Below, piece by piece: positions 2-60,942 of a stretch of 64,000 bases of DNA. How positions within the stretch are numbered: the stretch's first letter is position 1; each line of letters begins with the position of its first letter. The stretch is taken from positions 337,030-401,029 of the forward strand of contig JAGWHD010000001.1 in NCBI GenBank assembly GCA_028866995.1. Reading direction: 5' to 3'. The translations under genes and the position numbers were made by a program. The notes beneath the pieces were generated by a model that saw nothing but the letters and a program-made list of their open reading frames with translations, did not search any database and had not been told where the DNA came from. The DNA comes from Candidatus Micrarchaeota archaeon. GTDB taxonomy: Archaea > Micrarchaeota > Micrarchaeia > Micrarchaeales > CABMGC01.

Positions 2-73
2 GATGAGAGTATAGGAAATTGCGGCATATCGCAGAGGTACAGGGCCGACAGTGCGAGGCTGGCGGGTGCTTGA
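2..73 (+). CDS. 3' end of a CDS entering from the left edge, probably Kae1 (t6A synthesis)
   Basis: Open frame ...GISQRYRADSARLAGA ends at TGA 71-73, directly before the Bud32 ATG at 74. The QR[FY]R.D-type tail and Kae1-Bud32 adjacency are typical of archaea. Confidence 0.45.
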   Translation, partial: DESIGNCGISQRYRADSARLAGA

Positions 74-6153: not shown

Positions 6154-7458
6154 TCACATTCCTGGCATGAACTTCGACATGTTCTTCTTCAGGTCGCGGT
6201 TGTTCTTGAACATCGTAGCGAACTTCTTCATCCTGTTGAAGTCGCTTATGAGCTCCCTCACGTCTTTCTCGGTGGTTCCGCTGCCCTTCGCTATCCTCGC
6301 TATCCTGCTGTGCTCCTTGACAAGCCTGTCGCTGTTCCTCTCCTCCTTCGTCATAGAGCTTATTATCGACCCGTATTTCTTCAGCTTGGTCTCTCCGGTA
6401 TCCAGAACGTCCTTGGGCACGTCGGCCATGCCCATCATCCCCAGTATGCTCTTCATCGGGCCGACGTTCTGCATGGCCTTGAGCTGCTTGTAGAAGGTGT
6501 CGAAGCTGAGGTTGCTGATGTCGGCCTCTTCCTCCTTTATGTTAGCGCTCTTTACAGCTTCCTGCACCTTTAGCACCAAGGACTCTAGGTCTGGCATGCC
6601 GAGCAGCCTTCCGACGAACTTCTTCGAGTCGTAGGGCTCAAGCGCGTTGAGCTTCTCTCCAGTGCCTATGAACGTTATTCTCGTCTTGGACGCGGCCACT
6701 GCGCTGAGGGCGCCTCCTCCCTTCCCCGAACCGTCCAGCTTGGTGACTATGACCCCTGTCAGCTTTATCCTGCTATCGAACTCCGCTGCCTGCTTGCCCG
6801 CTACCTGCCCTATGTCCGCGTTTATGACAAGCATCTTCTCGTCTGGCCTGAACTCGTCGTTTATGAGCTTCAGCTCCTTGGCCAGCTCAGCATCCATCGC
6901 GTTCCTGCCCCCGGAGTCGCATATTATGACCTTGCGGCTCTTCAGCTCGTTGAGCCCTTCCCTTACCAGCTTCTTTACGTCCTTTTCCTCCTTCCTTCCG
7001 AAGAACGAGACATTAGACTGCTTTGCAAGCGTCTCAAGCTGCTCGAAGGCTGCGGGTCTCGAGACGTCGCAGCATATAAGCCCTACGCTGAGCCCCCTGT
7101 CCTGGTAGAACTTGGCGAGTTTCGCCGCGGTGGTGGTCTTACCTGACCCGTATATTCCGACAAGCAGGATCCTCTTCGGCGCTATCTCCGGGGCATAGGA
7201 CTCGCCCATCATCTTTACGAGCTCCTCGTAGACCATGTTGGTGATGTAGTCCTTGGGGGTTATCCCCTGCGGCAGCTTCTCCTTAAGCGCAGCGTCCTCT
7301 ATGCGCTTGGTGAAGGAGAGTACCAGGTTTATGTCCACGTCTGACGATATAAGCGCCTTCTGGAGCTCCTTGGTGAATTCCTTGATGGCCTTGGCGTCTA
7401 TTATCGTGGCTCCGCTAAGCCTTGCTATAGCCTTCCTTAGCCCTTCTCCTAGATCCAT
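6154..7458 (-). CDS. srp54: Signal recognition particle protein SRP54
   Basis: Start taken at MDLGEGLRKAIARLSG (aa 46 of the track ORF). G-domain GIYGSGKTTTAAKLA and TKLDGSGKGGGALS. Met-rich M domain (GMMGMADVP). Confidence 0.95.
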   Translation of the reverse strand: MDLGEGLRKAIARLSGATIIDAKAIKEFTKELQKALISSDVDINLVLSFTKRIEDAALKEKLPQGITPKDYITNMVYEELVKMMGESYAPEIAPKRILLVGIYGSGKTTTAAKLAKFYQDRGLSVGLICCDVSRPAAFEQLETLAKQSNVSFFGRKEEKDVKKLVREGLNELKSRKVIICDSGGRNAMDAELAKELKLINDEFRPDEKMLVINADIGQVAGKQAAEFDSRIKLTGVIVTKLDGSGKGGGALSAVAASKTRITFIGTGEKLNALEPYDSKKFVGRLLGMPDLESLVLKVQEAVKSANIKEEEADISNLSFDTFYKQLKAMQNVGPMKSILGMMGMADVPKDVLDTGETKLKKYGSIISSMTKEERNSDRLVKEHSRIARIAKGSGTTEKDVRELISDFNRMKKFATMFKNNRDLKKNMSKFMPGM

Positions 7459-7548
7459 TCCGAAGACCAAATTACCGGGCCGGAGCCCAATTGACAAATA
7501 GCCCTTACAACATATAATTAAGAATTTTCGGTATATAAAGATATGCGT

Positions 7549-7654
7549 GGGCTCATAGCTCAGCCTGGTCAGAGCGCCGGTCTTATACTTCAAGTTTCAA
7601 TTGAAGCTTGGATACGATAGCCGGATGTCGTGAGTTCAAATCTCACTGGGCCCA
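7549..7654 (+). tRNA. tRNA-Ile, anticodon TAT (UAU), with 31-nt intron at the canonical 37/38 site
   Basis: Acceptor GGGCTCA/TGGGCCC, D-arm GCTC-AGCCTGGTCA-GAGC, anticodon stem CCGGT/GCCGG, T-arm GTGAG-TTCAAAT-CTCAC, discriminator A. Spliced loop is CTTATAA. Mature length is 75 nt. Confidence 0.8.
7588..7618 (+). other. tRNA-Ile intron (bulge-helix-bulge)
   Basis: Central helix CTTA (7582-85)/TACG (7613-16) has one T-C mismatch. The 3-nt bulges are TA|C and AT|A. The inner helix is 6 bp, TTCAAG (7589-94)/CTTGGA (7607-12). Confidence 0.65.
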
Positions 7655-23301: not shown

Positions 23302-24771
23302 TTGGCCGGAAAAAGCGACAAGTTCTACATAACGACACCCATATTCTACGTTAACGATGTTCCCCACCTCGGCCATTCGTACACCATGGTGGTTTCGGAC
23401 ATTATTGCTAGGTGGCACAGGCTGCTTGGGGAGCGGGTCTTCTTCCTGACAGGGACTGACGAGCACGGCGAGAAGATAGCAAAGGCAGCAGAGCTGAGGA
23501 AGGAGGAGGTCAAGGCCTTCGTGGACAAGCTCGCGGAGGCCTACAAGGCGTGCTGGAAGGGGCTGTCCATATCGAATGACGACTTCATAAGGACTACTGA
23601 GAGGAGGCATGAAGAGGTGGTCTTCAGGTTCATAGAGGCGATGGACAGGAACGGGGACCTGTACAAGGGGGAGTATGAGGGATGGTACTGCGTTCCTGAC
23701 GAGACCTTCTTCACTGACCTGCAGCTCAAGGAGGGCAGGTGCCCCGTATGCGGGCGCGATGTCCAGAAGCTCAAGGAGGAGAGCTACTTCTTCAGGCTCA
23801 GCAAGTATCAGGATAGGCTGCTCGAGTACTACAAGGCCAACGAGAACTTTCTGGCGCCTAAATCCAGGTCTGCAGAGATAATAAACAGGGTCAAAGGAGG
23901 GTTGAAGGACCTTAGCATAACCAGGAAGTCGGTAAAATGGGGCATACCGTTCCCGATGGACAGGAAGCACAACATATACGTCTGGGTGGAGGCGCTTATA
24001 AACTACCTGAGCGCCCTTGACTGGAGGTCCGAAAAATCGGACCTATTCTGGCCAGCAGATGTGCACATGGTGGGAAAGGAGATCAACTGGTTCCATTCAG
24101 TGATATGGCCCGCGATGCTGTTCTCCGCGGGACTGGAGCCTCCTAGGAAGGTCTTTGCGCATGGGTGGTGGACGGTGGAGGGGCAGAAGATGAGCAAGTC
24201 TGTCGGCAACGTGGTGGACCCGATGGCCATGGCAGGCAAGTATTCGGTGGATGCGCTCAGGTACTTCCTCGTTCGCGAGATACCGCTGGGTGACGACGGG
24301 GACTTCTCGGAGAAAGCCCTGAGGCTGAGGCTGAACAACGAGCTTGCGGCTGACCTTGGCAACCTTGCATACAGAGTACTGAGCATAACGGAGAAGTTCG
24401 ATGGAAAGATAGAGGGCAGTCCAGAGCTTGAGGCGAGCCTTGACCTGAAGGGAATAGAGAAGGACATGCAGGAGCTTAACCTGTCTGGAGCATTGGAAAG
24501 GATATGGCACTTCATAAAGGCGTGCAACAAGTACGTCAATGACAAGAAACCCTGGGAGATGGATGGTGCAGAGCTATCGAACGCTCTCTACAACCTCCTG
24601 GAATCCTTGAGGATAATATCGATCCTGGTATCGCCGTTCATGCCTGAGACATCTGACAGGCTCAATGCACAGCTCGGAGTCAAGAGTGGCCTTCTCAGCG
24701 AGGCGAAATTCGGAGCGTTCAAGGGGAAGGTGAAGAAAGGGGAGTACCTCTTCAGGAAGATAGACGCTTAG
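23302..24771 (+). CDS. metG: Methionyl-tRNA synthetase, core only (no C-terminal tRNA-binding domain)
   Basis: 489 aa, TTG start. HIGH (PHLGHSY), KMSKS (KMSKSVGN), Zn knuckle CVPDE...CPVCG. Confidence 0.95.
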   Translation: MAGKSDKFYITTPIFYVNDVPHLGHSYTMVVSDIIARWHRLLGERVFFLTGTDEHGEKIAKAAELRKEEVKAFVDKLAEAYKACWKGLSISNDDFIRTTERRHEEVVFRFIEAMDRNGDLYKGEYEGWYCVPDETFFTDLQLKEGRCPVCGRDVQKLKEESYFFRLSKYQDRLLEYYKANENFLAPKSRSAEIINRVKGGLKDLSITRKSVKWGIPFPMDRKHNIYVWVEALINYLSALDWRSEKSDLFWPADVHMVGKEINWFHSVIWPAMLFSAGLEPPRKVFAHGWWTVEGQKMSKSVGNVVDPMAMAGKYSVDALRYFLVREIPLGDDGDFSEKALRLRLNNELAADLGNLAYRVLSITEKFDGKIEGSPELEASLDLKGIEKDMQELNLSGALERIWHFIKACNKYVNDKKPWEMDGAELSNALYNLLESLRIISILVSPFMPETSDRLNAQLGVKSGLLSEAKFGAFKGKVKKGEYLFRKIDA

Positions 24772-30248: not shown

Positions 30249-30845
30249 ATGGACATGTGGCAGCAGTACATGGGGTTTGTTGAGGGGCAGCTGGGAAGCA
30301 GGCCAGTGCTGCTCAGGAACGGACAGCGCTGGAACAGCTCCATTGCGCAGATACAGGACAGGTCGGTTGAGCTCGAGAAGGGAGCGGTATCAAGGGACTA
30401 CACCGAGTTCGGTAGGTATATAATAGCGAAGAACCTGACATTCGATCTCTTCGTATCGCTTTACGATGTAAATACAAGGAGGTGCGTTGCGCTGAGGCTT
30501 GCGGACCAGATGCCGCAGAAGGAGCTCGACGCAGCCATTGCGCCGCTCAAGAGGCTTCCGAGGCGCAACGTAGAGATGCGCGCAATAGGGATGCAGGATG
30601 GGCATGCGCCGCAGGCTCCTGTTCTGGACCATGTGAGAAGGGCATTGCATTGCAGGCTGATGGAAGCTGACATGTTCGGTACCGATGTGAGGCACGTAGC
30701 GGTCGACCTTAAGACAGGGGCATCGTACAACCTGCTGCTGCTCAACAGGATATACAGGCCTGGAGAGCTGAAGAACCAGCAGACCTACGAGCAGTTCGTG
30801 CAGCAGATCGGCTCAAAGGCTCCTGGAAAACAGGGTAGTGTATAA
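30249..30845 (+). CDS. Hypothetical protein (weak CheD-like Cys-hydrolase resemblance)
   Basis: 198 aa. RRCVALRLAD and EMRAIGMQDG...ADMFGTDVRHVAVDLKTGASY loosely match the CheD pattern. Low confidence in function. Confidence 0.5.
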   Translation: MDMWQQYMGFVEGQLGSRPVLLRNGQRWNSSIAQIQDRSVELEKGAVSRDYTEFGRYIIAKNLTFDLFVSLYDVNTRRCVALRLADQMPQKELDAAIAPLKRLPRRNVEMRAIGMQDGHAPQAPVLDHVRRALHCRLMEADMFGTDVRHVAVDLKTGASYNLLLLNRIYRPGELKNQQTYEQFVQQIGSKAPGKQGSV

Positions 30846-31352
30846 GGGGCCATCGGGAGTAAGCACGCTCTTCTTTATGAAAAGCTCAGGATTTCCGAAG
30901 GAGCCGAAGTCCATGGAGCCGATCCTTTCAATTGCGCCTTCAATCTTCTTCGTGTCGGCGCCATGCTTTACGCGCGCTATGGTTACGTGGGGCGTGAATA
31001 ACCTGCCCTCGGTTCGCATCCCCGCTTCCCTGAGCTTTCTGGAGAGGTCATCGTATATGGAAATAATCTCCGCGCTGCCGATTCCGATCTTAAGGTACAC
31101 GACATGCGGATCCTTGCCGCCGAATGCTCCTGCGCCTTCTATTGATATGCTGAAGCTGCTGTGCTTTACTGACTCCATGATGCTTTCCAGCATCTCCAAC
31201 TTGCCCTCCTCGACATCCCCAAGGAAGTGCAGCGTTATGTGAAGCGCTTCCCTCTTCACGAGTACGATGCCAGGTCCTTCCAGCAGCCTCTCCGCGTCGA
31301 TTATCCTGTCCTTGACGCTTTCAGGAATGCCGAGCCCGATGAACGCTCGCAT
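30813..31352 (-). CDS. 2H phosphoesterase (LigT/ThpR, RNA 2',3'-cyclic phosphodiesterase / 2'-5' ligase family)
   Basis: 179 aa. Two H-x-T-x motifs (HITLHFLG and HVTIARV). Confidence 0.85.
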   Translation of the reverse strand: MRAFIGLGIPESVKDRIIDAERLLEGPGIVLVKREALHITLHFLGDVEEGKLEMLESIMESVKHSSFSISIEGAGAFGGKDPHVVYLKIGIGSAEIISIYDDLSRKLREAGMRTEGRLFTPHVTIARVKHGADTKKIEGAIERIGSMDFGSFGNPELFIKKSVLTPDGPLYTTLFSRSL

Positions 31353-33475: not shown

Positions 33476-35458
33476 ATGCTCCTGCTAGCGCTGCTGGTGC
33501 TGATAAGCTCCGTATTGCTCGGAACCTCGGTAGCTTCAAGGCTCGGTTTCGCCAAGGGCGCGCTCTTCAGGATAGCGGTAGGAATTCCCATTGGGATAGC
33601 GCTCTTCTCAAGCGCGTTGGTTGCCCTGTATTTCGTGTTCGGCTCCATAAGCGCGTACATTGTCCTGGCGTTGGTAGTTGCGTCTTCAATCGTCTCGTAT
33701 GCGCTGTCTGGACGGAATCTCAGACTGTTGCTGCATCCAGGAAATGGCGACGAACCGACAGGGCTGCTTCCAATAATTGCAGCCGTCTTCCTGGTCCTGT
33801 TCGTGTTCTGGTTCACGTCCATGTACCAAGGCGACGGCGCGCTGTTCTGCAGGAGCAATGCCGCATGCTCCGACCTCCTGTACCACGTAGGCATAGGCAA
33901 TTCGCTCCTATATCATGGGCCGATGCCGCCTTATCCGTACAGCATAGGCACCGTGAATGTCTTCCCGTTCGTCTTCGACCTCTACAGCAGCCTCCTGATG
34001 AAGCTGGGTCTTGGAATGGTATACGCAACCATGGTGCCCGACATACTCCTGCTCTTCTCCCTTGCTTACCTTACAGCAACCATCATCCACAAGGTGACAA
34101 GGAGCATCGCCGGAACCGCGGCTGCGATGCTGATGTTCTGGTTCGGGACTAACTATTCAGTGGCATTAGTTTCGTATCTTCTCGCCCCGCACATTGGCAT
34201 ACTTAACCAGCTGCCGCAGCTCTCCAGCGTGCTGGTGCTTAACGGCATGTCGGCTTCCACGAAGATAGGAGCGTTATTGGCGCTGAGCGGCGGATTCGTT
34301 ACGCAGTGGATACCGATATTGAATCCCATACTAATGCCGCAGAGGGACTTCCTTCTCGGCCTGCCGTTGGGCCTCATTGCCCTGTATCTGCTGTTGTGTC
34401 TGCTTTTTGAGAAGCGGAGGCTCTCTGTTGGGGAGCTGCTGCTTTTAGGCTCTATCGTGGGCCTCATGCCGCTGATCCATCCTCCGACCGAGATCGTCAT
34501 CGTATTTGCGATACTTTTCTCGGTTGCGTATCTTGCGGTGAATGGTAGGCTCAGGGAAGAGCTGGGGAGCGCGTGGATTGCTGCTGCTCCTGCTATCGGC
34601 ATTGGGTCCGTTGAGGTTTACTATATGTGCATGCAGCAGCTCCCTCCGGGCTGGTACCATTTCGTCTACCTTTCCAGGATATTCGCTGGGCAGAACCTGC
34701 TGCTCACAGTGGCTAACACAATTGCAGCTAACGTAGCTTTCCTTGTGGAGGCCTTCGGGATTGTCTTCCTGCTTGCCATGGTCTGGCTCTTCATATCAAA
34801 GGACAGGATAGTAAGGCTGTTGTCCATTCCCATTTTCGCGCTGCTTTTCATCTCGCTGGTCTTTTCCTTCCAGCCAGTATGGACAGACAACGGCAGGATT
34901 ACTCTGTACGCCTTCCTGTTCATGGCCGCGTTTGCAGGAGCCCTTGTTGGGAGACTGTGGGAGAATAGGGGCACACTTCCGAGGATTGCCGCCTGCCTGC
35001 TGGTTGTCCTGATAAGCGGCAATTCTATCGTGATATACATAAATTCCACGATAATGTACAACGGCTATTGGCTGCTGACGCAGCAGGAGCTTGCAGCTTC
35101 CGACTTCATAACGAACAACACGCCTGTTGGCTCTGTCTTCTTGGTCAGCAACTACGGCTACCTGCAGAACCAGCCGGTTTCCACTGTGGCAGCAAGGCAG
35201 ACGGTGCTCTCCGAATCGCCCTACGTGGACTTGGAGGTACATTCGCTCAGCATCCCAAAGCTTCTTGAGATACAGGGTGCAGCACTGCATGGCAGCTGCG
35301 TGACGATGAGGCAGTACAACATATCTTACATCTACATAGACTCTGCAAGCCCAAGGGATACTGCGCCTTTCAACAATGGGAATTTCGCCGAGGTCTTCTC
35401 CGCCTTCGACACTTACTTCAACAGGAACATAACTATATTCAAGTCCTTGTGCGGCTGA
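33476..35458 (+). CDS. Large polytopic membrane protein with C-terminal soluble domain (possible GT-C-type glycosyltransferase)
   Basis: 660 aa, 12 or more hydrophobic segments, ~130-aa C-terminal domain. No WWDYG motif seen, so not a typical AglB. Confidence 0.65.
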   Translation: MLLLALLVLISSVLLGTSVASRLGFAKGALFRIAVGIPIGIALFSSALVALYFVFGSISAYIVLALVVASSIVSYALSGRNLRLLLHPGNGDEPTGLLPIIAAVFLVLFVFWFTSMYQGDGALFCRSNAACSDLLYHVGIGNSLLYHGPMPPYPYSIGTVNVFPFVFDLYSSLLMKLGLGMVYATMVPDILLLFSLAYLTATIIHKVTRSIAGTAAAMLMFWFGTNYSVALVSYLLAPHIGILNQLPQLSSVLVLNGMSASTKIGALLALSGGFVTQWIPILNPILMPQRDFLLGLPLGLIALYLLLCLLFEKRRLSVGELLLLGSIVGLMPLIHPPTEIVIVFAILFSVAYLAVNGRLREELGSAWIAAAPAIGIGSVEVYYMCMQQLPPGWYHFVYLSRIFAGQNLLLTVANTIAANVAFLVEAFGIVFLLAMVWLFISKDRIVRLLSIPIFALLFISLVFSFQPVWTDNGRITLYAFLFMAAFAGALVGRLWENRGTLPRIAACLLVVLISGNSIVIYINSTIMYNGYWLLTQQELAASDFITNNTPVGSVFLVSNYGYLQNQPVSTVAARQTVLSESPYVDLEVHSLSIPKLLEIQGAALHGSCVTMRQYNISYIYIDSASPRDTAPFNNGNFAEVFSAFDTYFNRNITIFKSLCG

Positions 35459-39705: not shown

Positions 39706-40863
39706 TCATGGCTGCATCCAGTCTATCTCGTAGTACTCGTTCCTGCTGTTCGCCAGCCTTATCTGCCTTATCCTGTAGTACGTGACTGCGGTTTCCCTGT
39801 CGGCTATGGCCATAACCAGCTCTAGCCTTCTTCTCTTGGCCTCTGCAATCGCGCCTGCGAACTCCCTGCCGCCTATGTACTCGTCCTCGCTGAGCGAGAG
39901 CATCCCGTACCTTGGAGTCGCTGTCTTGGGATTCTCGGCCTCTCCGCCCCTCCTGTGGAAAAGGACATAGTCTATGCCTACCTTCTGTGCGGGGAGGTTG
40001 CCAGGAACAGCGAGTATGAACGTCTTTCTTACTGAATGCGCGACCCTGATTGCCCTGGCCCATTCCGATATGAGGAGCCTTGATTCCTTTGGGAATACGT
40101 GGATCACGTGCTTCGAGTGTATCCTTTCTGTACTTCCTGCGGTCATCGGCCTTGCCCCTGGGAAGTACACCCTGAAATGGGTGCCGAACTTGAAGCCTGT
40201 CTTGATTACATAGCCTCTGTCCCTCCAGTCCCTGTAGACCTCATACAGCCTGTCGAAGTCCCTTCTCCTTGCCCTGGCCGTCCTCCTTATCGATAGAGGC
40301 GTTGTGCTGAGCGGCCTGAGGATGCGCTTGTCCATCAGGTACAGCGTCTCGAATATGTCGAGCTTGTTGAGCTGCCCCCTGTCCTGGGCCTTGTAGGAGC
40401 CATACTGGCCGAGCCATAGGCTTTCGTACAGCTGTTTGCCTTTATCCTTGTCGCCTATTATGGAGACCATGTCGCTGTTGAAGAACGTGCACGTGAGCTT
40501 GTACTTGGGCAGTTTTATCCTTGATCCTGGATACGACTTCACAGGCGTCTTGTTGGCGGTGCTGCGGACCGGGCCTGGCCGGCGTATGACCAGTCCCCTG
40601 TCCCTCCAGTCCCTATATGTCAGGTACTTGGCCATGAACTTGCCGGATTTCGAGAAGCCTGAAGCAAGCTCATCGAAGGGCATGCTCCTGCCGTTGTGGG
40701 TGCATTCCGCATTCCTGACATCCATCAGGTACAGCGCCTCTTCCGGAGAGAGCCTGAGCGACTTCCCCTCGTCGTCCCCGAAGAAGCCCTTGCCAAGTAT
40801 GTCCTTTGTCGACTGATCAACTGCCGTTATCCTGTTTTTGGAGGCGAAATCTATCTGCAGCAA
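39706..40863 (-). CDS. endA: tRNA-splicing endonuclease, long three-unit form
   Basis: 385 aa. Catalytic unit YRDWRDRGYVIKTGFKFGTHFRVY...HSKHVIHV...SVRK (Y/H/K), preceded by a degenerate copy (EEALYLMD...YRDWRDRGLVIRR) and followed by an extra C-terminal-type domain (YGMLSLSEDEYIGG...AIADRETAVTYYRI). Confidence 0.88.
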   Translation of the reverse strand: MLQIDFASKNRITAVDQSTKDILGKGFFGDDEGKSLRLSPEEALYLMDVRNAECTHNGRSMPFDELASGFSKSGKFMAKYLTYRDWRDRGLVIRRPGPVRSTANKTPVKSYPGSRIKLPKYKLTCTFFNSDMVSIIGDKDKGKQLYESLWLGQYGSYKAQDRGQLNKLDIFETLYLMDKRILRPLSTTPLSIRRTARARRRDFDRLYEVYRDWRDRGYVIKTGFKFGTHFRVYFPGARPMTAGSTERIHSKHVIHVFPKESRLLISEWARAIRVAHSVRKTFILAVPGNLPAQKVGIDYVLFHRRGGEAENPKTATPRYGMLSLSEDEYIGGREFAGAIAEAKRRRLELVMAIADRETAVTYYRIRQIRLANSRNEYYEIDWMQP

Positions 40864-43176: not shown

Positions 43177-45429
43177 TCAGTCCCTTATCCCGTTCGGGGT
43201 TATCTTCATGACAGCTTCCCCCTCGGGCATGTTTGGCGAGTCCACGAGCCTGACTATCCTCTTGTCCTCCTTCGACTTCCTCATGTAGAGCCTTGTTGTC
43301 GCCGCGTGCGCTATGATGTTGCCGCCGACAGGCGTTGTCGGATCGCCGAAAAGTATGCCTGGGTTCTCCATGACCTGGTTGGTGACGTACACTGCAAGCA
43401 TGTGCGTGTCAGCAAGCTGCTGCATCTTGTGTATGTGCTGGTTGAGCTTCTGCTGCCTCTCCGCGAGCGCGCCCCTTCCCACGAACTCGCTCCTGAATAG
43501 GTTCATTATCGAGTCCACGATTATCAGCTTGACGTTGTGCTCCCTGATGAGCTTGTCGGCCCTCTCGAGCGCGAGCACCTGCTGCTCTGTGTTGTAGGCC
43601 CTGACAACGAGTATGTTATCCAGCACCTTCTGCGGGTCCATGTTGCTTGCCTTGGCTATCTGCTCTATCCTGTCAGGCCTGAAGGTATTATGTAGGAAAA
43701 CGCCACCGTAGCCTCCTATGAAGTTTTCTATCTTTTTACCGGGCATGACCTCAAAATCGTAACAGACTTCCTCTGAAACTTCTTCTATAGACACGACTTT
43801 GTCGAACCATATGTCGCTATCAATTAGCTTTTTAAGCTTCGAAACAGATGGCGTTTCATTGAGAGGATTTAGCAGCCGCTTAAGTTTGCTTCTACTTACG
43901 GATTTGACTATGCCTGTTTCTATCTGTGAAACCGGAGCTACTGTATTGCCTGTTGTTATGCCATACTGTGTCGCCCCGTTTTCTTTTCTTGCTTTCTTGA
44001 GAAGGCGGCCTATCTGTAGGCAGTTGTTTGGCAGGAGTTGTAGGTTCCTGTCTTTCTTCGTATCTACAGCCCAATGAATGTTGTATGTCTGGCTTGGCCC
44101 GCCCTTTGAGTGCACGCCTTCCCTGAATATTTGCTGGTTCCTAGCAGGCACGCGGAAAGACGCCATTAGGTAGAGTAGGTCATTAGCTAGAAATCTGCTC
44201 GCAGTATCGGCATTTTGGGTGTTATTGGGCTTGTTCAGGCTGCCGTCTCCAATCAGGTAGCCGTTGAGGAAGCTGTTTTGGGATGTGGTTGTCGAATTGA
44301 GTATAAATTCCGGCACCCTTTTGGTATGCGAGTTATATGGTGAGAACTGGTAGCATGCTTTCAGCTCTTCTGTTAGCTCTTTGGAATAAATCCTATAATC
44401 CATTTTGTTCCTATGGTACCTTAAACCTCTTTTCTTTGTGAAATTTTGGACTATTTTCTCTACTTTTGGGTTATCTTTCTGGGTGATAATTGTAAGGTAA
44501 TGCCCAGTCTTGTATCTATCGTCCGGTATCATGCTGCCTTCGGCAACATACAGACCGAAGAATTCGGCTTCCTCGTCGGATATGTCATTTTTGTGTGTCG
44601 CGTTTGGGATAAAGGCAGGAACCGCTACGAAGTCTTTTTCTTTGATATCCTTAAGGTAAGTTGGGGCCAAGTCTCCCTCCTTGTCTAGTGTGAAGAAGTT
44701 GTGATATTCGGTAGTCTTGACCTCTCTGCCGCTCGCGAGCTTGATTCTGAATATCTTTTTAATAGGATGCTTTATGAAACCGGTTATGTCGAATCGGTCT
44801 ACCTTAAGTGTTTGGGGGTCAAATGAGACCGCCCGAATCCTCCTTGGGTTCTCCGATACGGATATGCTGCCGTTTATGTCTTTGGCTTCTTTTGCATCCG
44901 TTATTGCTCGTTCTACAACTTCGCCGATCTTCTCGAAACGCAGCTTTCCGTCTATTTCTAATAGAACCGTTTCCTCGTAAGGCAGGCTGCCCTCCGTGTC
45001 TATGAACAGGGTGCTGCCGTCAAGGCCCCCCTCGCTTATCGGCAGCTGGGCGTTGACCGCTATCTGGAACCCCAGCTGCGTCTTTCCTGAGGCGAACTTC
45101 CCATACGCCTCTGTTATGGCATTGGTCTCTACGCCCCCTCCAAGCAGCTCGTCAAGGCTCTTGGAACCCGTCTTGATCCTGCCCAGGGCCTTCCTCGTCT
45201 CGTAGATCTTGGAGCCTGATTCGAATTCAAGGGTCGTGGCCTGCTTTGCGGCGTCGACCGCCTTCTTGGCGTTCTCGACGCTGATCCCTGATACCTCTGC
45301 TATCTCGTGCGGCGATGATGTGGCTATCTTCTCTATGCTGTCGTAGCCCTTCTCCTTCAGCTTCTCAGCCGATGCCGGTCCGACCCCCGGAAGGTCCTCA
45401 AGAGACTTTAACCCCTTCTCCTTCGCCAC
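43177..45429 (-). CDS. radA: RadA recombinase interrupted by an intein
   Basis: 750 aa, GTG start. N-terminal HhH (LEDLPGVGPASAEKL), Walker A GKFASGKTQ, FIDTEG | intein | TFRPDRI, Walker B LIIVDS. Exteins sum to 316 aa. Confidence 0.93.
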   Translation of the reverse strand: MAKEKGLKSLEDLPGVGPASAEKLKEKGYDSIEKIATSSPHEIAEVSGISVENAKKAVDAAKQATTLEFESGSKIYETRKALGRIKTGSKSLDELLGGGVETNAITEAYGKFASGKTQLGFQIAVNAQLPISEGGLDGSTLFIDTEGSLPYEETVLLEIDGKLRFEKIGEVVERAITDAKEAKDINGSISVSENPRRIRAVSFDPQTLKVDRFDITGFIKHPIKKIFRIKLASGREVKTTEYHNFFTLDKEGDLAPTYLKDIKEKDFVAVPAFIPNATHKNDISDEEAEFFGLYVAEGSMIPDDRYKTGHYLTIITQKDNPKVEKIVQNFTKKRGLRYHRNKMDYRIYSKELTEELKACYQFSPYNSHTKRVPEFILNSTTTSQNSFLNGYLIGDGSLNKPNNTQNADTASRFLANDLLYLMASFRVPARNQQIFREGVHSKGGPSQTYNIHWAVDTKKDRNLQLLPNNCLQIGRLLKKARKENGATQYGITTGNTVAPVSQIETGIVKSVSRSKLKRLLNPLNETPSVSKLKKLIDSDIWFDKVVSIEEVSEEVCYDFEVMPGKKIENFIGGYGGVFLHNTFRPDRIEQIAKASNMDPQKVLDNILVVRAYNTEQQVLALERADKLIREHNVKLIIVDSIMNLFRSEFVGRGALAERQQKLNQHIHKMQQLADTHMLAVYVTNQVMENPGILFGDPTTPVGGNIIAHAATTRLYMRKSKEDKRIVRLVDSPNMPEGEAVMKITPNGIRD
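43687..44988 (-). mobile_element. Intein (434 aa) with LAGLIDADG homing-endonuclease domain
   Basis: Starts SLPYEETVLL (Ser1). Block B TTEYH. LAGLIDADG motifs FFGLYVAEGS and FLNGYLIGDGS. Ends VFLHN followed by Thr+1. The segment looks more AT-rich than the flanking radA exteins by eye. Confidence 0.88.
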
Positions 45430-49776: not shown

Positions 49777-49851
49777 TAGCGAGAAGAGGATTTGAACCTC
49801 CGATCTCCGGGTTATGAGCCCGGCGGGCACTCCAGGCTACCCTACCTCGCT
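49777..49851 (-). tRNA. Initiator tRNA-Met (anticodon CAT)
   Basis: A1:T72 first pair (AGCGAGG/TCTCGCT), three consecutive G:C pairs closing the anticodon stem (CCGGG-CTCATAA-CCCGG), T-arm GGAGG-TTCAAAT-CCTCT. 75 nt. Confidence 0.8.
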
Positions 49852-50751: not shown

Positions 50752-52080
50752 TTAAGCACTCCTATATCTTTTTCCAAAAGCTCTTATAATGCTATCAAAA
50801 ACCGCGCCCCTTGGCGACAAATCATAGCTCACATGGACTATCGGCTTGTCTATGTTCACCAACCTCTTCAGGTCAATGGGCGTTGCCGAGAGCACGACGT
50901 CGCAGTCTGCGCGCATAAGCGTATGCTCAAGGTCCTTTATCTGCTTTGCGCTGTAGCCCATGGCAGGCAGCTCCTTATCCAACCTTGGATATCTCTCGTA
51001 AACGTCCTTAATGGTCCCGTACGCGTACCTCTTGGCGCTTACTATGGACCCCACCCCGAACTTCTCCGCGGCCACCGTAGCGGCCCCGATCCTCATGCCT
51101 CCGTGCGTAATTGTTGGTCCGTCCTCTACAAGCAGCACCCGCTTCCCCTTCAGTATGCCCCTGTTGTCTACATCGACAACAGAGTCGGCAAGCACAATCT
51201 TCGCCTTCGGATTTATCCCCCTCATGTCTGTACTCACCCGCCCGATCTCGCTCTCGGTTGCCGAGTTCACCTTGTTGATAACGATGACCTCGGCCATCCG
51301 CGCGACCGTCTCCCCAGGATAGTATGTAAGCTCGTTCCCAGCCCTAAGCGGGTCTGCCACGGCTATGCTAAGGTCGCTCCTGAAGAACGACGTGTCGTTG
51401 TTGCCCCCATCCCATATTATTATGTCCGATTCCTTCTCTGCCAGCCTCAGGATCTTTTCATAGTCTACGCCGGAGTATACGATGAACCCGAGCCTTACGG
51501 GGAGCTCGTACTCCTCGCGCTCCTCTATAGTCGTCTTGTACCTGTCAAGGTCCTTCAACGTGGCGAAGCGCTCCGCGGCCTGCTCCTTCAGCACGCCGTA
51601 GGGCATAGGATGCCTGACGATACCAACCCTGAGGCCCATCTCCCTAAGCAATTTTGCTACGTACCTCGTGGTCTGGCTCTTCCCCACCCCGGTTCTCACC
51701 CCACATATAGAGATTACTGGCTTCTCAGACCTCAGCATCGTCCTCTCTGGCGCCACGAGCCAGAAATCAGCCCCAGCCGCGTTTACCAGGCTGGCCTTTT
51801 CCATGACGTCCTGATACTCCAGGTCGCTGTACGACATCACACAGACATCTGCCTCATGCTTCTTGATAAGCCTCTCAAGCTCCGACTCGTCGTGTATGCC
51901 TATACCCTTCGGATACCTGTCTCCTGCAAGTTCCTTTGGATATCTCCTGTTCGCAATGAACGGTATCTGCGCGGCGGTGAAGGCGACGACATCGTAAGAG
52001 GCATTGTCCCTGAAAAGCATGTTGAAGTTGTGGAAATCGCGCCCCGCAGCGCCGATTATGATAACCTTTTTCGTTTCCAT
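50752..52080 (-). CDS. COG2403-type P-loop protein (cyclic 2,3-diphosphoglycerate synthetase-like family)
   Basis: 442 aa. IIGAAGRDFHNFN N-terminus, P-loop GVRTGVGKSQTT, RHPMPYG. The stop codon directly abuts the tRNA-Lys 5' end. Confidence 0.75.
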   Translation of the reverse strand: METKKVIIIGAAGRDFHNFNMLFRDNASYDVVAFTAAQIPFIANRRYPKELAGDRYPKGIGIHDESELERLIKKHEADVCVMSYSDLEYQDVMEKASLVNAAGADFWLVAPERTMLRSEKPVISICGVRTGVGKSQTTRYVAKLLREMGLRVGIVRHPMPYGVLKEQAAERFATLKDLDRYKTTIEEREEYELPVRLGFIVYSGVDYEKILRLAEKESDIIIWDGGNNDTSFFRSDLSIAVADPLRAGNELTYYPGETVARMAEVIVINKVNSATESEIGRVSTDMRGINPKAKIVLADSVVDVDNRGILKGKRVLLVEDGPTITHGGMRIGAATVAAEKFGVGSIVSAKRYAYGTIKDVYERYPRLDKELPAMGYSAKQIKDLEHTLMRADCDVVLSATPIDLKRLVNIDKPIVHVSYDLSPRGAVFDSIIRAFGKRYRSA

Positions 52081-52224
52081 AGAAACGGATAATTATCGCA
52101 TAGAAGGTTATTAACCCTTATTAAGCGATTTCTGGCTTGCCGAAGCCATTCTGTCGTCGTAAAAGCGAATCAAAAAGGTTTATATTACTTTAAAGGGAAA
52201 TGGTATTCGGGTTACTTGGTTTCT

Positions 52225-54141
52225 ATGAGCGCAGAATTAGTCAACGATAGCTATAACGCCTCGAAAATCGTTGTGCTTGAGGGTCCGCAAGGCATACGGA
52301 AGAGGCCAGCGATGTACATAGGCTCCACCGGGCCTTCCGGGGTGCTGCACCTACTCTACGAGGTGGTTGACAACGCAGTTGACGAGGCGATAGCCGGCTA
52401 CTGCAAGAACATATCGATAAGGCTTTTCAGGGAGGACAGTGGCGACATAGCCGAGGTGACGGACGACGGGAGGGGCATACCTATAGACACGATAGAGAAA
52501 TACAACAAGAGCGCTCTCGAGGTGATAATGACCACGCTCCACAAAGGCGCCAAGTTCAACAACGACGTCTACAAGGTGTCCGGAGGCCTGCACGGAGTCG
52601 GCCTTACCGTGGTCAATGCACTATCAGAGTATACCGACGTGACGGTAAGGAAGGATGGGCACACGTACCGGCAGTCGTTCAGCAGGGGCATTCCATCGGG
52701 CAAGATTGAGCTAATAGGGGATACCAACGAGAAGGGCACGACGATAAGGTTCAAGCCCGACAAGGATATATTCTCAACGCTCGTAATTGACTCCACGATA
52801 CTGAAGGAGAGGCTGAGATACACCGCCTTCCTCAATCCCGGGCTAAGGATAACGCTTACCGACGAGAGGTTCGAGAGCAAGGAGACGGAAGAATTCGCAT
52901 CGTCGGGGGGCCTTGCCGACTTCATATCATTCCTGAACAAGGACGCGGCTACCCTCACCAACATAATCCAGTCAAAGAGGCAGGAGGGCACCGTCACCAT
53001 AGAGTTCGCGCTGCAGTACGTTGACACCTATGAAGAGAAGCTCGATTCTTTCGTCAACAACATAAAGACGCCCGAGGGCGGCACACACGTATCAGGCATG
53101 CACTCGGCCATAACCCGCGCCATCATGAACTACATAGACAAGAACAAGATCAACGTGCGCGACATCAGGATAACCGGAGAGGACACGAGGGAGGGCCTTA
53201 CGGCAATACTGAGCGTGCTGATGCAGAACCCGGAGTTCGAGGGCCAGACAAAGGAGAAGCTGGGCAACGCTTCTGTTAAGGGGATAGTTGACGGGACGGT
53301 GTACGCGAACATGTCCAGATACCTAGAGGAGCATCCGGCAGACGCAAAGGCGATAATGGGCAAGGTGATGAGCGCCGCAAGTGCGAGAGAGAGCGCCAGG
53401 AAAGCCAGGGACCTTGCCAGGAAGAAGAACATATTCGACAGCACCGTGCTCCCGGGTAAGCTGGCAGACTGCATAGACTCCAATCCGGAGAATACTGAGC
53501 TCTTCATAGTGGAGGGCGCAAGCGCAGGCGGCTCTGCGAAGGAGGGCAGGGACAAGAGCATACAGGCAATCCTTCCGCTGAGGGGCAAGATTCTCAATGT
53601 TGAGAAGGCCGGAGATGAGCGAATATTCGACAATGCCGAGATAAAGGCCATGGTGACCGCATTCGGAACAGGGATAAAGGAGACCTTCAACTCCGAGGCG
53701 ATAAGGTACAAGAAGATAATAATAATGACGGATGCCGACGTTGACGGCAGCCACATAAGGACCCTGCTGCTCACATTCTTCTACAGGTACATGAAGAAGA
53801 TCATCGAATCCGGATACGTGTTCGCCGCGCAGCCGCCGCTATACAAGATATCCAAGGGCAAGAACGAGGCGTACTGCTACAACGACGCGGAACTCGCAGA
53901 AAAGATGAAGGAGCTCGGAGAGGACTCTGCTGTCCAGAGGTACAAAGGGCTGGGGGAGATGAACCAGGAGCAGCTCTGGGACACGACAATGAATCCGAAG
54001 AACAGGAGGCTAAAGAAGCTCACCATTGCCGATGCCGCAAGAGCCGAGGAGCTGTTCAAGATACTTATGGGAGTTGATGTGCCGCAGAGAAGGAAGTTCC
54101 TCCAGGAGCACGCGGAGGAGGTAAAGACGCTCGATGTGTGA
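52225..54141 (+). CDS. gyrB: DNA gyrase subunit B
   Basis: GHKL ATPase [15 protein letters not shown], Toprim [10 protein letters not shown] and [14 protein letters not shown] 52225 (the track starts at TTG 52216). Confidence 0.97.
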
Positions 54142-56540
54142 AGATGACTGAGATAAACAACATATCGCTCGAGGACGAACTCCAGAACAGCTACATCGAC
54201 TACGCCATGAGCGTGATAATAGGCAGGGCGATACCAGAAGCCAGGGACGGGCTGAAGCCGGTGCAGCGCAGGATCCTGTATGCGATGCATCTTCTCAAGA
54301 ACTTCCACAACCAGCCGACCAAGAAGAGCGCAAGGATAGTCGGAGAGGTAATAGGCAAGTTCCACCCCCACGGCGACACGGCAATCTACGACGCGCTCGC
54401 AAGGATGGCACAGAGCTTCTCGATGAACCATCTGCTGGTCGAAGGGCAGGGCAATTTCGGTTCAATAGATGGGGATCCCCCAGCAGCAATGAGATACACG
54501 GAAGTGAGGCTCACCAAGCTCGCAGAGGAGATGCTCAGCGACATAGACAAGGACACTGTAGACCTGTTCCCGAACTTCGACAACACAGAGAAGGAGCCGT
54601 ACCTGCTTCCCTCGAAGGTGCCTAACCTGCTAGTCAACGGAGCCACAGGGATAGCGGTTGGCGTGGCGACGAGCATGCCGCCGCACAACCTTTCCGAGGT
54701 GTGCGACGCTGTAGTCTACACCATAGACAATCCTTCAGCAAGCATAGACGACGTTCTCAACATAATCAAGGGACCGGACTTCCCGACCGGCGGCATAGCG
54801 CTCATGTCGCAGGGCGCGTACAACGGCTACAGGTTTGGGAGAGGACAGCTGACGCTGAAGGCAAGGGCCAGGATAGAGAAGAAGCGGATAGTGATAGACC
54901 AGATACCGTACAACGTAAACAAGTCGTCGCTGATACAGCACATGGCGGAGCTAGCCAGGGAGAAGAGGATAATTGGGGTAAAGGACATAAGGGACGAGAG
55001 CGACAAGAGCGGAATAAGCATAATCGTCGAGCTGCGCGACGAGGACATGGGGGAGCAGGTGCTGAACATGCTCTACAAGTACACACAGATGCAGACCACG
55101 ATGCCGATCATAAACCTGGCGATAGTCGGAAAGAGCCTGAAGAACCTGAACATACTGCAGCTGATAACAACATTCATAGGCCACAGGAGGGAGATGGTTC
55201 TCAGGAGGACCAGGTACGACCTTGATATAGCTAAGAACAGGCTCCACATAGTCGAAGGGCTCCTCGTCGCGATCTCCAGCATAGGCGAGGTGATCGACAT
55301 GATAAAGGCCAGCCGGGAGGTTGCCGAGGCAAGGAAGAGGCTGATGGAAGCCTACAAGCTGAGCGACAGGCAGGCCAACGCGATACTGGACATGAAGCTG
55401 AGCAGGCTCACCCATCTTGAGAACGACTCGCTGCAGAATGAGAAGGCGGAGCTAGGGAGAAGCATAGAGGAATACAGCTCCATAATAGCGGACGGCTCAA
55501 AGGTCGACAGGATCATCAAGGACGAGACGCTGCAGGTCAAGAAGGCGTTCGGAAGGCCAAGGAACACCCAGATAGTGCAGACCGAGGAGATAGCCGACAT
55601 AGAGGACGAGGACATGATAAGCAATGACCCAGTAACCATAATCTTCACAAACAACGGCTACGTGAAGAGGATGGGAGTTGAATCCTACAAGGAGCAGGGG
55701 AGGGGCGGCAAAGGCCTAATATCTATAAACCTCAAGGAGGGCGACTACGTAAAGCAGATACTCACCTGCCACAACAAGGACTTCATCATATGCGTGACCG
55801 ATCAGGGGAGGGCTTTCTGGCTCAAGGCATACAGGGTACCCGAAGGATCGAGATACTCAGAGGGCAAGGCCATAGTCAACCTTCTCGGAACAGAGGAGAG
55901 GATAGTCAAGCTCCTGCACATAAAGGACTTCGACGGCTCCAAGATAGTATTCCTCACGTCCAAGGGACTTGCGAAGAAGCTCAGCGCCAAGCTGTTCTCC
56001 AGGCCGAGATCCAACGGGGTGAGGGCCATAACTCTCGTGCAGAACGACCAGATAGTGGACAGCATAGTGTACAGGGAGCAGAAGTTCCTGATAATAACGA
56101 CGACAAAAGGCAAGGCGGTGAAGTTCGGCGAGACGTTGCTCAGACCCATAGGAAGGACAGGAATGGGAGTCAGGGGGATAAGGATAGCGTCTAACGACTC
56201 TGCCAGGAACATTATGGCAGCAAACGACGCAGGGAGCGTGCTCACGATAACTGCAAACGGCTATGGCAAGATAACAGACATAAACATGTACAGGACCCAG
56301 GGGAGGGGCGGCAAGGGTGTCATAAACCTCAAGGCAAACCAGAAGACCGGAGACGTTACAAAGTCGCTGTTCGTCAGCAACGAGGAGAAGGTGGTGCTGA
56401 TAAGCTCCAGCGGCGTCAGCATAACGTTCCCAATCTCGTCCGTCAGGATAACTGGCAGGGCTGCGAGCGGTGTGCGTCTGATGAGGCTGGAGCAGGGAGC
56501 GAAGGTCGAGGACGCGATGCTGATCAAGGACGAGGCATAA
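54138..56540 (+). CDS. gyrA: DNA gyrase subunit A
   Basis: 800 aa. Active-site Tyr region [10 protein letters not shown] and C-terminal beta-pinwheel repeats. The start overlaps the gyrB stop (GTG 54138 or ATG 54144). Confidence 0.97.
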
Positions 56541-59307: not shown

Positions 59308-60942
59308 TCAGATGATATAAGCGGTCCCGTTCACCATCTGCGTCCTGTTCTGTATTGTCATGTTGATGGGCAAGTGCAACAAGAGGTTCAGCGGCACTCC
59401 GACTATAGGCCCACCATTTTCATAACAGGCGACGCTTATGTGTGCCGTCGCGTTCGGCGCCAACGTCAGGTTCAGTTTCTTCGAAACACCACTGCCGTGC
59501 CAGTAGCAGCCAGCACTTCCTATCCCAACGGTTCCTGTGCCTGTGTAGTTGTTTATCAGGTCGAAGCCTATCGTGCTGTTCTCGAAGGTGACGTTAAAGC
59601 AGCCTATGGTGACATTTAGCACGCAAGCGTTCCTGAGACCCGACAGGAATTCGGTTGAGTTGCCGCTCAGGTTGAAGCTCTTTATCAATGCGGCGTTTAG
59701 CCCGACCTGGCTGAGTATCCTTGAAGAGTTTATCAGCGCCACCGCGCTTGCGTTCAACTGGCCCTTGTAGACCTTGGTGCTTATCAGCGACAGCGGCGGC
59801 GTAGAGCCGAACGGCACTCCGGTTGCCAGTACGTACACGCTGCAGTAGCTAGTGCCGTTGAAGTCGTTTATTATGCCGAGGCACACGTCGTTCTGCTGCG
59901 ATGTGCTGTTCTCCTCTATGAACTCAAGCATCGCGCTGCCGTTGAGAAGGAACATCCTTCCGGAGCTGTGGTAGTTTCCCGAAACAGAGCTGAAGTTTGC
60001 GACCACGGGCCCGTAATATGTGGGCAGCTTGTCTATGAACGCGCTCTCAATGCTGGAGTTGAGGTTCTGCGAGGCGCTGGAAGGTATCATCTTGGTGCAG
60101 TTCATCGACCCTGATGTTCCAAGCAGTTTCAGCCAGCCTCCTTCGTACCAGCTGCACAGCTCGGTGCTGTTGTCCAGCTGCACCAGCGTGACGTTCTCAC
60201 CGTTAAGCGTTAAGTTTGCAGACGCTATCGCCTTGCCTTGGGCCAACGTCCTGATTATGCCCGGAGACAGGTATCCCTGGATCCAGATAGAATACACAGC
60301 GCCGTTGCTGTATGTCCCGTACGCGCCGCTTATCCTCTTTATGTAGCTACCCGCAACGTAAACCATCGGGGTAAGGAACGCGTTCAAAGCCGATGACTTG
60401 GTCAGCGCTACCTTAGACACGCTGTAATTGTTAGCAAGGAGGGCGGATACCAAGGCTCCCTGCGCAGCCATGTCGTAAGAGTCGTAGAAGCTCCCGAACC
60501 TGGGCAGCGCAGCGTATGGAGTCGCGTTCTCGGCCGGCAGCACCGTGAAGCTAGTGGAATAGACTGTTGACTGCCTGTTGCCTATGTTGTACAGCCTGTC
60601 CGGGTCTATGGCCGCTGTGAAGTTGTACACTCCGCTCGCAGACGGCGAATAATTGAAGTAGAGAGTGAGCTGCTTGCCCGCCGGCAGCGTGATGCTGTAT
60701 ATCGTTGTCGTGTTGCCGTTGAGCGTGAAGCCCAGGCTCACGTTCTTCAGCGCCGATGAACCGACATTGTTGACCTGCACCGGTATCTGCAGCCTCTGGT
60801 AGGCGAAGATCGTTTGGGCAGAGTAGTTCTGCGGCGCGCCCACGTGCACCAGCAGCGTAGGCTGGTAGAACAGCCTGTAGTACAACGCACCTGCCGCAAC
60901 CGCCACGAATACAGCTATCCACAAATATGTCTCCTTGTTCAT
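59308..60942 (-). CDS. N-terminally anchored surface protein with CARDB-like domain and very high N-glycosylation sequon density
   Basis: 544 aa. TM YLWIAVFVAVAAGALYY. CARDB-like IPVQVNNVGSSALKNVSL...YNFTAAIDPD. About 29 N-x-S/T sequons by my count. Confidence 0.65.
   Translation of the reverse strand: MNKETYLWIAVFVAVAAGALYYRLFYQPTLLVHVGAPQNYSAQTIFAYQRLQIPVQVNNVGSSALKNVSLGFTLNGNTTTIYSITLPAGKQLTLYFNYSPSASGVYNFTAAIDPDRLYNIGNRQSTVYSTSFTVLPAENATPYAALPRFGSFYDSYDMAAQGALVSALLANNYSVSKVALTKSSALNAFLTPMVYVAGSYIKRISGAYGTYSNGAVYSIWIQGYLSPGIIRTLAQGKAIASANLTLNGENVTLVQLDNSTELCSWYEGGWLKLLGTSGSMNCTKMIPSSASQNLNSSIESAFIDKLPTYYGPVVANFSSVSGNYHSSGRMFLLNGSAMLEFIEENSTSQQNDVCLGIINDFNGTSYCSVYVLATGVPFGSTPPLSLISTKVYKGQLNASAVALINSSRILSQVGLNAALIKSFNLSGNSTEFLSGLRNACVLNVTIGCFNVTFENSTIGFDLINNYTGTGTVGIGSAGCYWHGSGVSKKLNLTLAPNATAHISVACYENGGPIVGVPLNLLLHLPINMTIQNRTQMVNGTAYII

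Follow-up and report, generated by a model that had tools for sequence, protein, structure and literature searches.

Most archaea read the isoleucine codon AUA with a tRNA-Ile2(CAU) carrying agmatidine made by the enzyme TiaS, and among 167 complete archaeal genomes a tRNA-Ile gene with an encoded UAU anticodon was found in Korarchaeum cryptofilum and Nanoarchaeum equitans alone (PMC6000648; PMC8450103). How, then, is AUA read in an archaeon where such a UAU gene, interrupted by an intron, is encountered? The gene discussed here lies at positions 7549–7654 of a 64 kb stretch of DNA (“the window”) from a Micrarchaeota archaeon, an ARMAN-type member of the DPANN group, and the content of the source genome was read over that span. 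We consider it very probable that this is a functional AUA-reading tRNA-Ile(UAU) gene, which takes the place of tRNA-Ile2(CAU) and TiaS. The UAU solution for AUA is correct but not new, as it was already described for the Micrarchaeota lineage in 2011 (PMC3239211), and the case in the window is a documented ARMAN/Micrarchaeota feature and adds no new exception to the way archaea decode AUA. The initial annotation of this DNA had named Nanoarchaeum and Korarchaeum as lineages having a UAU gene and lacking TiaS, which agrees with the literature (PMC6000648, PMC8450103); its list was nevertheless incomplete, with ARMAN-2, -4 and -5 published in 2011 (PMC3239211), and the case is therefore less unusual than it had implied.

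A tRNA-Ile(UAU) gene with a 31-nt intron

The Rfam tRNA family RF00005 matches 7549–7654 over its full length (model positions 1–71 of 71; E=7e-10), scoring 57.8 bits where the gathering threshold is 29; the alignment has 32 inserted nucleotides in the anticodon loop. With introns allowed, ARAGORN calls a tRNA-Ile(tat) with a 31-nt intron at the same coordinates; its default run, without introns, did not detect a tRNA gene there. The gene was parsed as follows, the intron being of the bulge-helix-bulge (BHB) type.

7549..7654, forward strand: pre-tRNA-Ile(UAU) gene, 106 nt; mature tRNA of 75 nt, discriminator A73, CCA not encoded
7549..7587, forward strand: 5′ exon, tRNA positions 1–37 plus extra D-loop residues (own parse, collinear with intronless orthologues)
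7584..7586, forward strand: anticodon TAT (U34 A35 U36), by own parse and ARAGORN
7588..7618, forward strand: 31-nt BHB intron CTTCAAGTTTCAATTGAAGCTTGGATACGAT at the canonical 37/38 site
7619..7654, forward strand: 3′ exon, tRNA positions 38–73

Splicing at 7587/7588 and 7618/7619 yields a 75-nt tRNA, for which a perfect cloverleaf of −29.1 kcal/mol is computed, having a variable loop of 5 nt. Removal of the intron restores a 7-nt anticodon loop, CUUAUAA, at which the anticodon UAU stands between U33 and a purine at position 37. The proposal from the initial reading of the letters, namely a tRNA with a 31-nt intron at 37/38, the loop CTTATAA and the anticodon TAT, was borne out by Rfam, by ARAGORN with introns and by intronless orthologues.

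Conservation and covariation in related genomes

Relatives of the locus were collected through the protein gene next to it.

6154–7488, reverse strand: SRP54, divergent neighbour of the tRNA gene

A search of SRP54 against one genome per GTDB species gave 14 loci (L001–L014) with 60–91% identity, 13 of them labelled Micrarchaeota, Micrarchaeaceae or Mancarchaeum and one Marsarchaeota, the best match being JAGWGW01, “Candidatus Micrarchaeota archaeon REEA6”. An orthologous tRNA-Ile(UAU) is held by 11 of the 14 related genomes (L001–L011), and in nine of them (L001, L002, L004–L010) it directly adjoins SRP54, as in the window. Three orthologues (L003, L009 and L010) are intronless, with CTTATAA uninterrupted in the loop, and so establish the splice register; the remaining genomic orthologues carry introns of 27–38 nt at the identical site. 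All 12 mature sequences (window and 11 relatives) are collinear 75-mers with an invariant TAT anticodon. Across the 8 distinct orthologous sequences, the 21 cloverleaf pairs are paired in 168 of 168 cells (100%), with 7 pairs changed on both sides, and the covariation score of 0.333 compares with 0.128±0.024 for shuffled sequences (0 of 500 reach it) and with at most 0.094 when partners are slid. Judged by these alignments, the covariation of the cloverleaf is the mark of selection on function. Since the gene is kept in 11 related genomes with compensatory changes, its call is far beyond chance. The UAU solution has been kept across Micrarchaeota with genomic GC contents from 27% to 57%, its intron having been lost repeatedly or ranging between strict and relaxed BHB forms.

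Two U·G wobbles, 7553/7650 (5·68, in the acceptor stem) and 7581/7620 (31·39, closing the anticodon stem), are invariant in 8 of 8 distinct orthologues while their neighbours covary. Such invariant pairs might be identity or modification determinants.

When introns were allowed, ARAGORN called the orthologues L004 and L005 as Ser(tga) and L006 and L011 as Tyr(ata). These calls were rejected as misplaced introns, the alignment showing TAT in all four. Automated annotation of such metagenome-assembled genomes may overlook tRNA-Ile(UAU) owing to intron misplacement of this kind.

Upstream of the gene, the following box was noticed.

7511..7522, forward strand: A/T-rich box CATATAATTAAG, 27–38 nt upstream of the tRNA 5′ end

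By sequence, similar boxes at an equal distance from the tRNA are found in L001, L003, L004/L005, L009 and L010, and the box probably serves the tRNA gene as its archaeal TATA box. The whole divergent spacer between SRP54 and the tRNA (7489–7548) measures 60 bp and holds two A/T-rich boxes, 7511–7522 and 7530–7540, recognisable in several relatives; these may be crossed TATA boxes of the SRP54 and tRNA genes.

BHB motif and splice register

The intron can be drawn together with the anticodon arm as a BHB motif composed of the elements below, with the anticodon stem as its outer helix.

7582..7585, forward strand: 5′ strand of the central helix, CUUA (C32 U33 U34 A35), pairing with 7613–7616
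7613..7616, forward strand: 3′ strand of the central helix, UACG (intron positions −6..−3), pairing with 7582–7585
7586..7588, forward strand: 5′ bulge of 3 nt, UAC (U36 A37 C+1), predicted cleavage at 7587/7588
7617..7619, forward strand: 3′ bulge of 3 nt, AUA (A−2 U−1 A38), predicted cleavage at 7618/7619
7589..7612, forward strand: inner helix h′ of 10 bp (7589–7598/7603–7612) with the 4-nt loop AAUU, present in the minimum free energy (MFE) fold and in the hand-built BHB structure

The predicted cleavage positions follow from the BHB rule, by which the cut falls after the second bulge nucleotide. The central helix consists of C-G, U·C, U-A and A-U, so that 3 of its 4 positions are paired with a single mismatch at U33·C; this is the T-C mismatch in CTTA/TACG that the first reading had pointed out. 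As modelled, the window intron has the strict hBHBh′ geometry with one mismatch.

The TAT genes, pooled from the genomic and metagenomic matches listed, make up 46 distinct versions, 5 of them intronless and 41 with an intron. Among these listed matches, the 41 distinct introns are 14–43 nt long and always lie at 37/38 with A38. In the canonical register, on average 3.61 of their 4 positions −6..−3 are paired with exon positions 35..32, as against 1.0–2.1 out of 4 once the register is moved by −2 to +4. The central helix is perfect in 27 of these 41 listed introns and has a single mismatch in 13, the window included; the mismatch of the window is therefore ordinary for the family. Strict hBHBh′ motifs occur in some relatives, and in others (e.g. 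L002, L006–L008, L011) the inner helix beside the 5′ bulge is missing, giving a relaxed motif, in keeping with the report that the ε2 type of splicing endonuclease has a broad specificity (PMC3239211). The initial annotation had allowed that another splice register with another anticodon would overturn its proposal; we looked at this, and the canonical register alone is supported, the intronless copies reading CTTATAA.

The splicing endonuclease and the ARMAN-2 system

A gene for a splicing enzyme lies in the same window.

39706..40863, reverse strand: EndA, three-unit (ε2-type) tRNA splicing endonuclease of 385 aa (phmmer against PDB 4FZ2; NCBIfam endA matches)

Residues 9–385 of this protein align with residues 11–387 of PDB 4FZ2 chain A, the EndA of ARMAN-2 (E=2e-141, 56% identity), and other archaeal endonucleases align to its C-terminal catalytic unit alone (residues ~135–302). 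On this similarity, the window EndA is evidently an orthologue of the ARMAN-2 ε2 endonuclease and, by analogy, it is expected to be the enzyme that excises the tRNA-Ile(UAU) intron. The rare ε2 architecture is thus encoded in one window with its likely substrate, 32 kb apart.

In ARMAN-2, -4 and -5, tRNA-Ile(UAU) is present, and tRNA-Ile(CAU) and TiaS homologues are absent (Fujishima et al. 2011, NAR 39:9695, PMC3239211). The pre-tRNA-Ile(UAU) of ARMAN-2 has a 25-nt intron at 37/38 with an hBHBh′ motif and is cleaved in vitro by the ARMAN-2 ε2 endonuclease, an enzyme of broad specificity that accepts relaxed motifs (PMC3239211). “Candidatus Micrarchaeum acidiphilum” ARMAN-2 therefore shares with the window the phylum, the encoded UAU, the hBHBh′ intron at 37/38 and the ε2 endonuclease; it differs in the length of the intron (25 nt versus 31 nt in the window) and in its motif, which is described as strict, whereas that of the window has one U·C mismatch. 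Splicing in vitro was demonstrated with the ARMAN-2 enzyme and substrate, while the pair in the window is known here from sequence. At that level, the window holds what is to all appearances the orthologous substrate and enzyme pair of the published ARMAN-2 system in another Micrarchaeota species.

AUA usage and isoleucine identity

Codons were counted in 66 non-overlapping open reading frames (ORFs) covering 93% of the window. The 1556 isoleucine codons comprise 1116 ATA, 293 ATC and 147 ATT, so that ATA accounts for 72% of them and, with 56 occurrences per 1000 codons, outnumbers ATG more than twofold. ATA is the dominant isoleucine codon even against a strong G/C bias at third positions, the GC content of which is 0.69; notwithstanding the ATA bias, almost every other codon family favours G/C endings, and AGG makes up 70% of the arginine codons. 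The initial annotation, which suggested that ATA usage be tabulated, had called ATA heavily used on the example of gyrA, where both isoleucine codons among the first ten are indeed ATA; the counts show this to have been an understatement. Across the 14 Micrarchaeota loci, with GC contents from 27% to 57%, the ATA fraction of isoleucine codons is 0.49–0.77.

When the SRP54 codons of 15 genomes are aligned, columns with ATA in the window hold ATA 192 times, ATC 28, ATT 24, valine codons 50, leucine codons 32 and ATG 12; the ATC columns of the window are mostly ATA, and its ATG columns stay ATG (136). ATA therefore interchanges with ATC and ATT, not with ATG, and means isoleucine. From these alignments and counts, ATA is an isoleucine codon that would need an abundant decoder.

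To judge the identity of the tRNA itself, we used the tRNA-Ile(UAU) and tRNA-Ile(GAU) sequences of Korarchaeum given in the supplementary data of Wu et al. 2018 (PMC6000648). In ungapped comparison, the mature window tRNA is 79% identical to the former and 77% to the latter, as against 63–71% to the other four standard-length tRNAs of the window (Lys, Gly, Glu and initiator), and it bears the isoleucine-type marks A73, A37 and A38. A BLAST search of the mature tRNA against the annotated E. coli genomes of a 28-Gb database gave no match at E<=10. An isoleucine-type body, as had been suspected from the backbone at the outset, is supported by these comparisons, short of a formal isotype call. Metagenome matches to the backbone pattern with position 34 left free point the same way, since those listed include at least 60 GAT and 52 TAT genes against at least 8 with CAT.

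TiaS and tRNA-Ile2(CAU)

General NCBIfam/Pfam scans of the 66 window ORFs gave no match to TiaS families, although no search aimed at TiaS was made, and no isoleucyl-tRNA synthetase (IleRS) turned up among the window ORFs scanned. Among the tRNAs found in the 64-kb window, there was no candidate for tRNA-Ile2(CAU); the only one with a CAU anticodon is the following.

49777..49851, reverse strand: CAU-anticodon tRNA with A1·U72 and GGG/CCC in the anticodon stem

We take A1·U72 and the GGG/CCC anticodon stem to be features of archaeal initiator tRNAs; this tRNA is the initiator and so not a tRNA-Ile2 candidate. A search of the literature on TiaS and DPANN found nothing relevant.

The canonical route through TiaS and 2-agmatinylcytidine (agm2C34) shares with the window tRNA its task, reading AUA as isoleucine and not AUG, and a similar isoleucine-type backbone. 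It differs in that position 34 of the window tRNA is an encoded T, with no cytidine to agmatinylate, and the TiaS route is therefore unable to act on this tRNA.

Proposed pathway and discrimination of AUA from AUG

We propose that the 106-nt precursor would be transcribed from the putative promoter at the A/T box 7511–7522, after which the 31-nt intron would pair with the anticodon loop and form the BHB motif at 37/38. The ε2 EndA encoded 32 kb away would then cut both 3-nt bulges, followed by ligation of the exons and addition of CCA. Going by the ARMAN work and general archaeal tRNA biology, on which the cutting and joining steps are modelled as well, N6-threonylcarbamoyladenosine (t6A37) would be formed and the tRNA charged by IleRS. 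The mature 75-nt tRNA, with UAU and A37, would read AUA, the majority isoleucine codon (72%), and would stand in for tRNA-Ile2(CAU) and its agmatidine made by TiaS, the absence of both being presumed from the published ARMAN genomes. Splicing, isoleucine charging and the way in which U34 avoids misreading AUG are inferred; the gene with its splice register, its conservation and covariation, the meaning and frequency of ATA and the presence of the endonuclease orthologue are what the data themselves show.

The UAU tRNA would decode about 70% of isoleucine codons and would not be a minor species, and whatever mechanism separates AUA from AUG must therefore be efficient and accurate. In the literature searched, we found no determination of the modification of an archaeal tRNA-Ile(UAU). 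Perhaps Micrarchaeota separate the two codons by a mechanism undescribed in archaea, either a modification of U34 (or one resembling Ψ34/Ψ36, Ψ being pseudouridine), possibly aided by intron pairing, or an unmodified U34 together with an adapted IleRS or ribosome; we regard this as rather unlikely. The novelty that is left in this case is the state of U34 where a UAU tRNA is the major isoleucine decoder.

Alternative explanations

Several points weigh against a functional UAU tRNA that replaces tRNA-Ile2(CAU) and TiaS. Folded as the complete BHB motif, the pre-tRNA reaches −37.3 kcal/mol, 3.5 kcal/mol short of its MFE fold, which leaves the central helix open, and that helix is mismatched. Richness in ATA is not diagnostic of a UAU tRNA, since Thermofilum pendens, with no UAU gene and four CAU genes, has 55% ATA among its isoleucine codons (PMC6000648 Tables S3/S4); we have therefore dropped it as evidence for a UAU system. 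Moreover, some bacteria hold both a TAT gene and tilS (PMC3575796), and as in some Firmicutes with this combination, the source genome, which was read over 64 kb alone, might also encode TiaS and tRNA-Ile2(CAU), leaving the UAU tRNA as an extra decoder of AUA. Such redundancy is improbable in our view: in all archaea for which a UAU gene has been reported, TiaS or the third CAU tRNA is missing, as in N. equitans and K. cryptofilum (PMC8450103, PMC6000648) and in ARMAN-2, -4 and -5 (PMC3239211), general scans of the 66 window ORFs (none of them aimed at TiaS) gave no match to its families, the only CAU tRNA of the window is the initiator, and the CAT genes with a like backbone in metagenomes (at least 8) form a single group with different stems.

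A decaying or unexpressed pseudogene, or a C34-to-T error of sequencing or assembly in a tRNA-Ile2(CAU) gene, could be suspected from the mismatch in the BHB central helix. The probability of either is minimal, as T34 is found in 12 independent genomes and at least 52 metagenomic contigs, and all stems are preserved by compensatory changes; a single mismatch is shared by 13 of 41 introns among the matches listed, and the ε2 endonuclease accepts relaxed motifs (PMC3239211). In addition, the decoder of the main isoleucine codon would be indispensable. An intron placed elsewhere in the loop is suggested by the Ser(tga) and Tyr(ata) calls of ARAGORN in four orthologues and, on inspection of the sequence, removal of 31 nt at other offsets would leave CGA or UGA (Ser), UAA (Leu) or AUA (Tyr). 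However, the intronless orthologues with CTTATAA already refute this, U33 would be lost or a pyrimidine placed at 37, the complementarity within the BHB motif holds specifically in the canonical register, and the 12 mature tRNAs are all collinear and 75 nt long; a long variable arm is required in Ser and Leu tRNAs, whereas the variable loop here has 5 nt. We give this other register hardly any credence. AUA is read as methionine in many mitochondria, and the code is known to vary at UAU/AUA, so that the window tRNA might be thought to be charged with methionine. This too is extremely unlikely, since the relatives have ATC/ATT (52), Val (50) or Leu (32) opposite the ATA codons of the window much more often than ATG (12), the ATC codons of the window align mostly with ATA, ATA occurs at over twice the frequency of ATG, and proteins translated with ATA as isoleucine fit NCBIfam/Pfam models over their full length.

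Comparison with other UAU tRNAs

The tRNA-Ile3(UAU) of Korarchaeum cryptofilum and Nanoarchaeum equitans resembles that of the window in having a UAU anticodon that makes tRNA-Ile2(CAU) and TiaS unnecessary. The Korarchaeum gene also bears an intron, and both genomes favour ATA, which forms 65% of isoleucine codons in Korarchaeum (PMC6000648) and 72% in the window. They differ in belonging to other phyla and having other stems; the UAU gene of Korarchaeum is nearly identical to its own GAU gene, while the GAU gene of our source genome lies outside the window.

The minor tRNA-Ile(UAU) of eukaryotes, as in yeast, likewise combines UAU with an intron at 37/38 that pairs with the anticodon. From the 1994 work of Szweykowska-Kulinska et al., it reportedly has the anticodon ΨAΨ, and the intron is said to be required for Ψ34/Ψ36. 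This dependence and the way in which the splicing enzymes recognise their substrate set yeast apart from the window; among the matches listed, 5 of 46 distinct relatives are intronless, which argues against an obligatory intron-dependent step.

The tRNA-Ile2(UAU) of Mycoplasma mobile is a further prokaryotic UAU tRNA, found where the C34-modifying enzyme has been lost, and it faces the same two problems, namely that IleRS must recognise UAU and that AUG must not be misread; it differs from that of the window in being bacterial, having no intron and working with a bacterial-type IleRS (Arg865) (PMC3575796). It carries an unmodified U34 and relies on IleRS Arg865 and the ribosome for discrimination (Taniguchi et al. 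2013, PMC3575796).

Related tRNA genes in metagenomes

Metagenomes were scanned with the invariant positions of the backbone, leaving position 34 free, and at least 120 contigs (L015–L134) were obtained. The anticodon is GAT in at least 60 of these listed matches, TAT in at least 52 and CAT in at least 8. The CAT genes (at least 8: L017, L027, L052, L074, L079, L087, L106 and L129) form one near-identical group, in which the acceptor stem and D arm are Ile-like (GGGCTCG...GGGCCCA) and the stems differ from those of the window tRNA; their contigs have no relation to the window, and ATA makes up about 50% of the isoleucine codons there. They are probably the ordinary tRNA-Ile2(CAU) of one unrelated archaeal group.

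Similar TAT genes, some of them with multiple introns, are common in environmental archaeal contigs. In L020, L113, L025, L044, L028 and L056, TAT genes of 130–210 nt share the 5′ backbone of the window and have one or two extra long insertions in the T-loop/variable region; these multi-intron genes have weak or no matches to the window. Their sequences suggest that the use of a UAU tRNA extends to further uncultivated lineages of archaea.

As for contigs with a GAT tRNA, tblastx of L086, L121 and L123 against the window and L001–L014 found no shared genes, and that of L070 gave weak matches of ~27–32% alone. The ATA-rich and AGR-rich codon usage of these four contigs hints at a related origin.

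Other genes of the window

The gene content is typical of a small archaeal genome and includes MCM, RadA with an intein, gyrB/gyrA, aIF2α, TFE, ribosomal proteins and the RNase P subunit Pop5. An Lhr-like helicase is encoded at 56542–59298. Three long ORFs, 59308–60942 (reverse strand; 544 aa), 33476–35458 (forward strand; 660 aa) and 50752–52080 (reverse strand; 442 aa), gave no match in NCBIfam. The following genes may be listed in addition.

23302–24771, forward strand: methionyl-tRNA synthetase (MetRS) gene
30813–31352, reverse strand: LigT-like 2′,3′-cyclic phosphodiesterase/2′-5′ RNA ligase family protein
43177–45429, reverse strand: RadA with an intein of ~430 aa, comprising an intein N-terminal splicing domain and two RadA segments
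52216–56540, forward strand: gyrB/gyrA, a bacterial-type DNA gyrase in a DPANN archaeon

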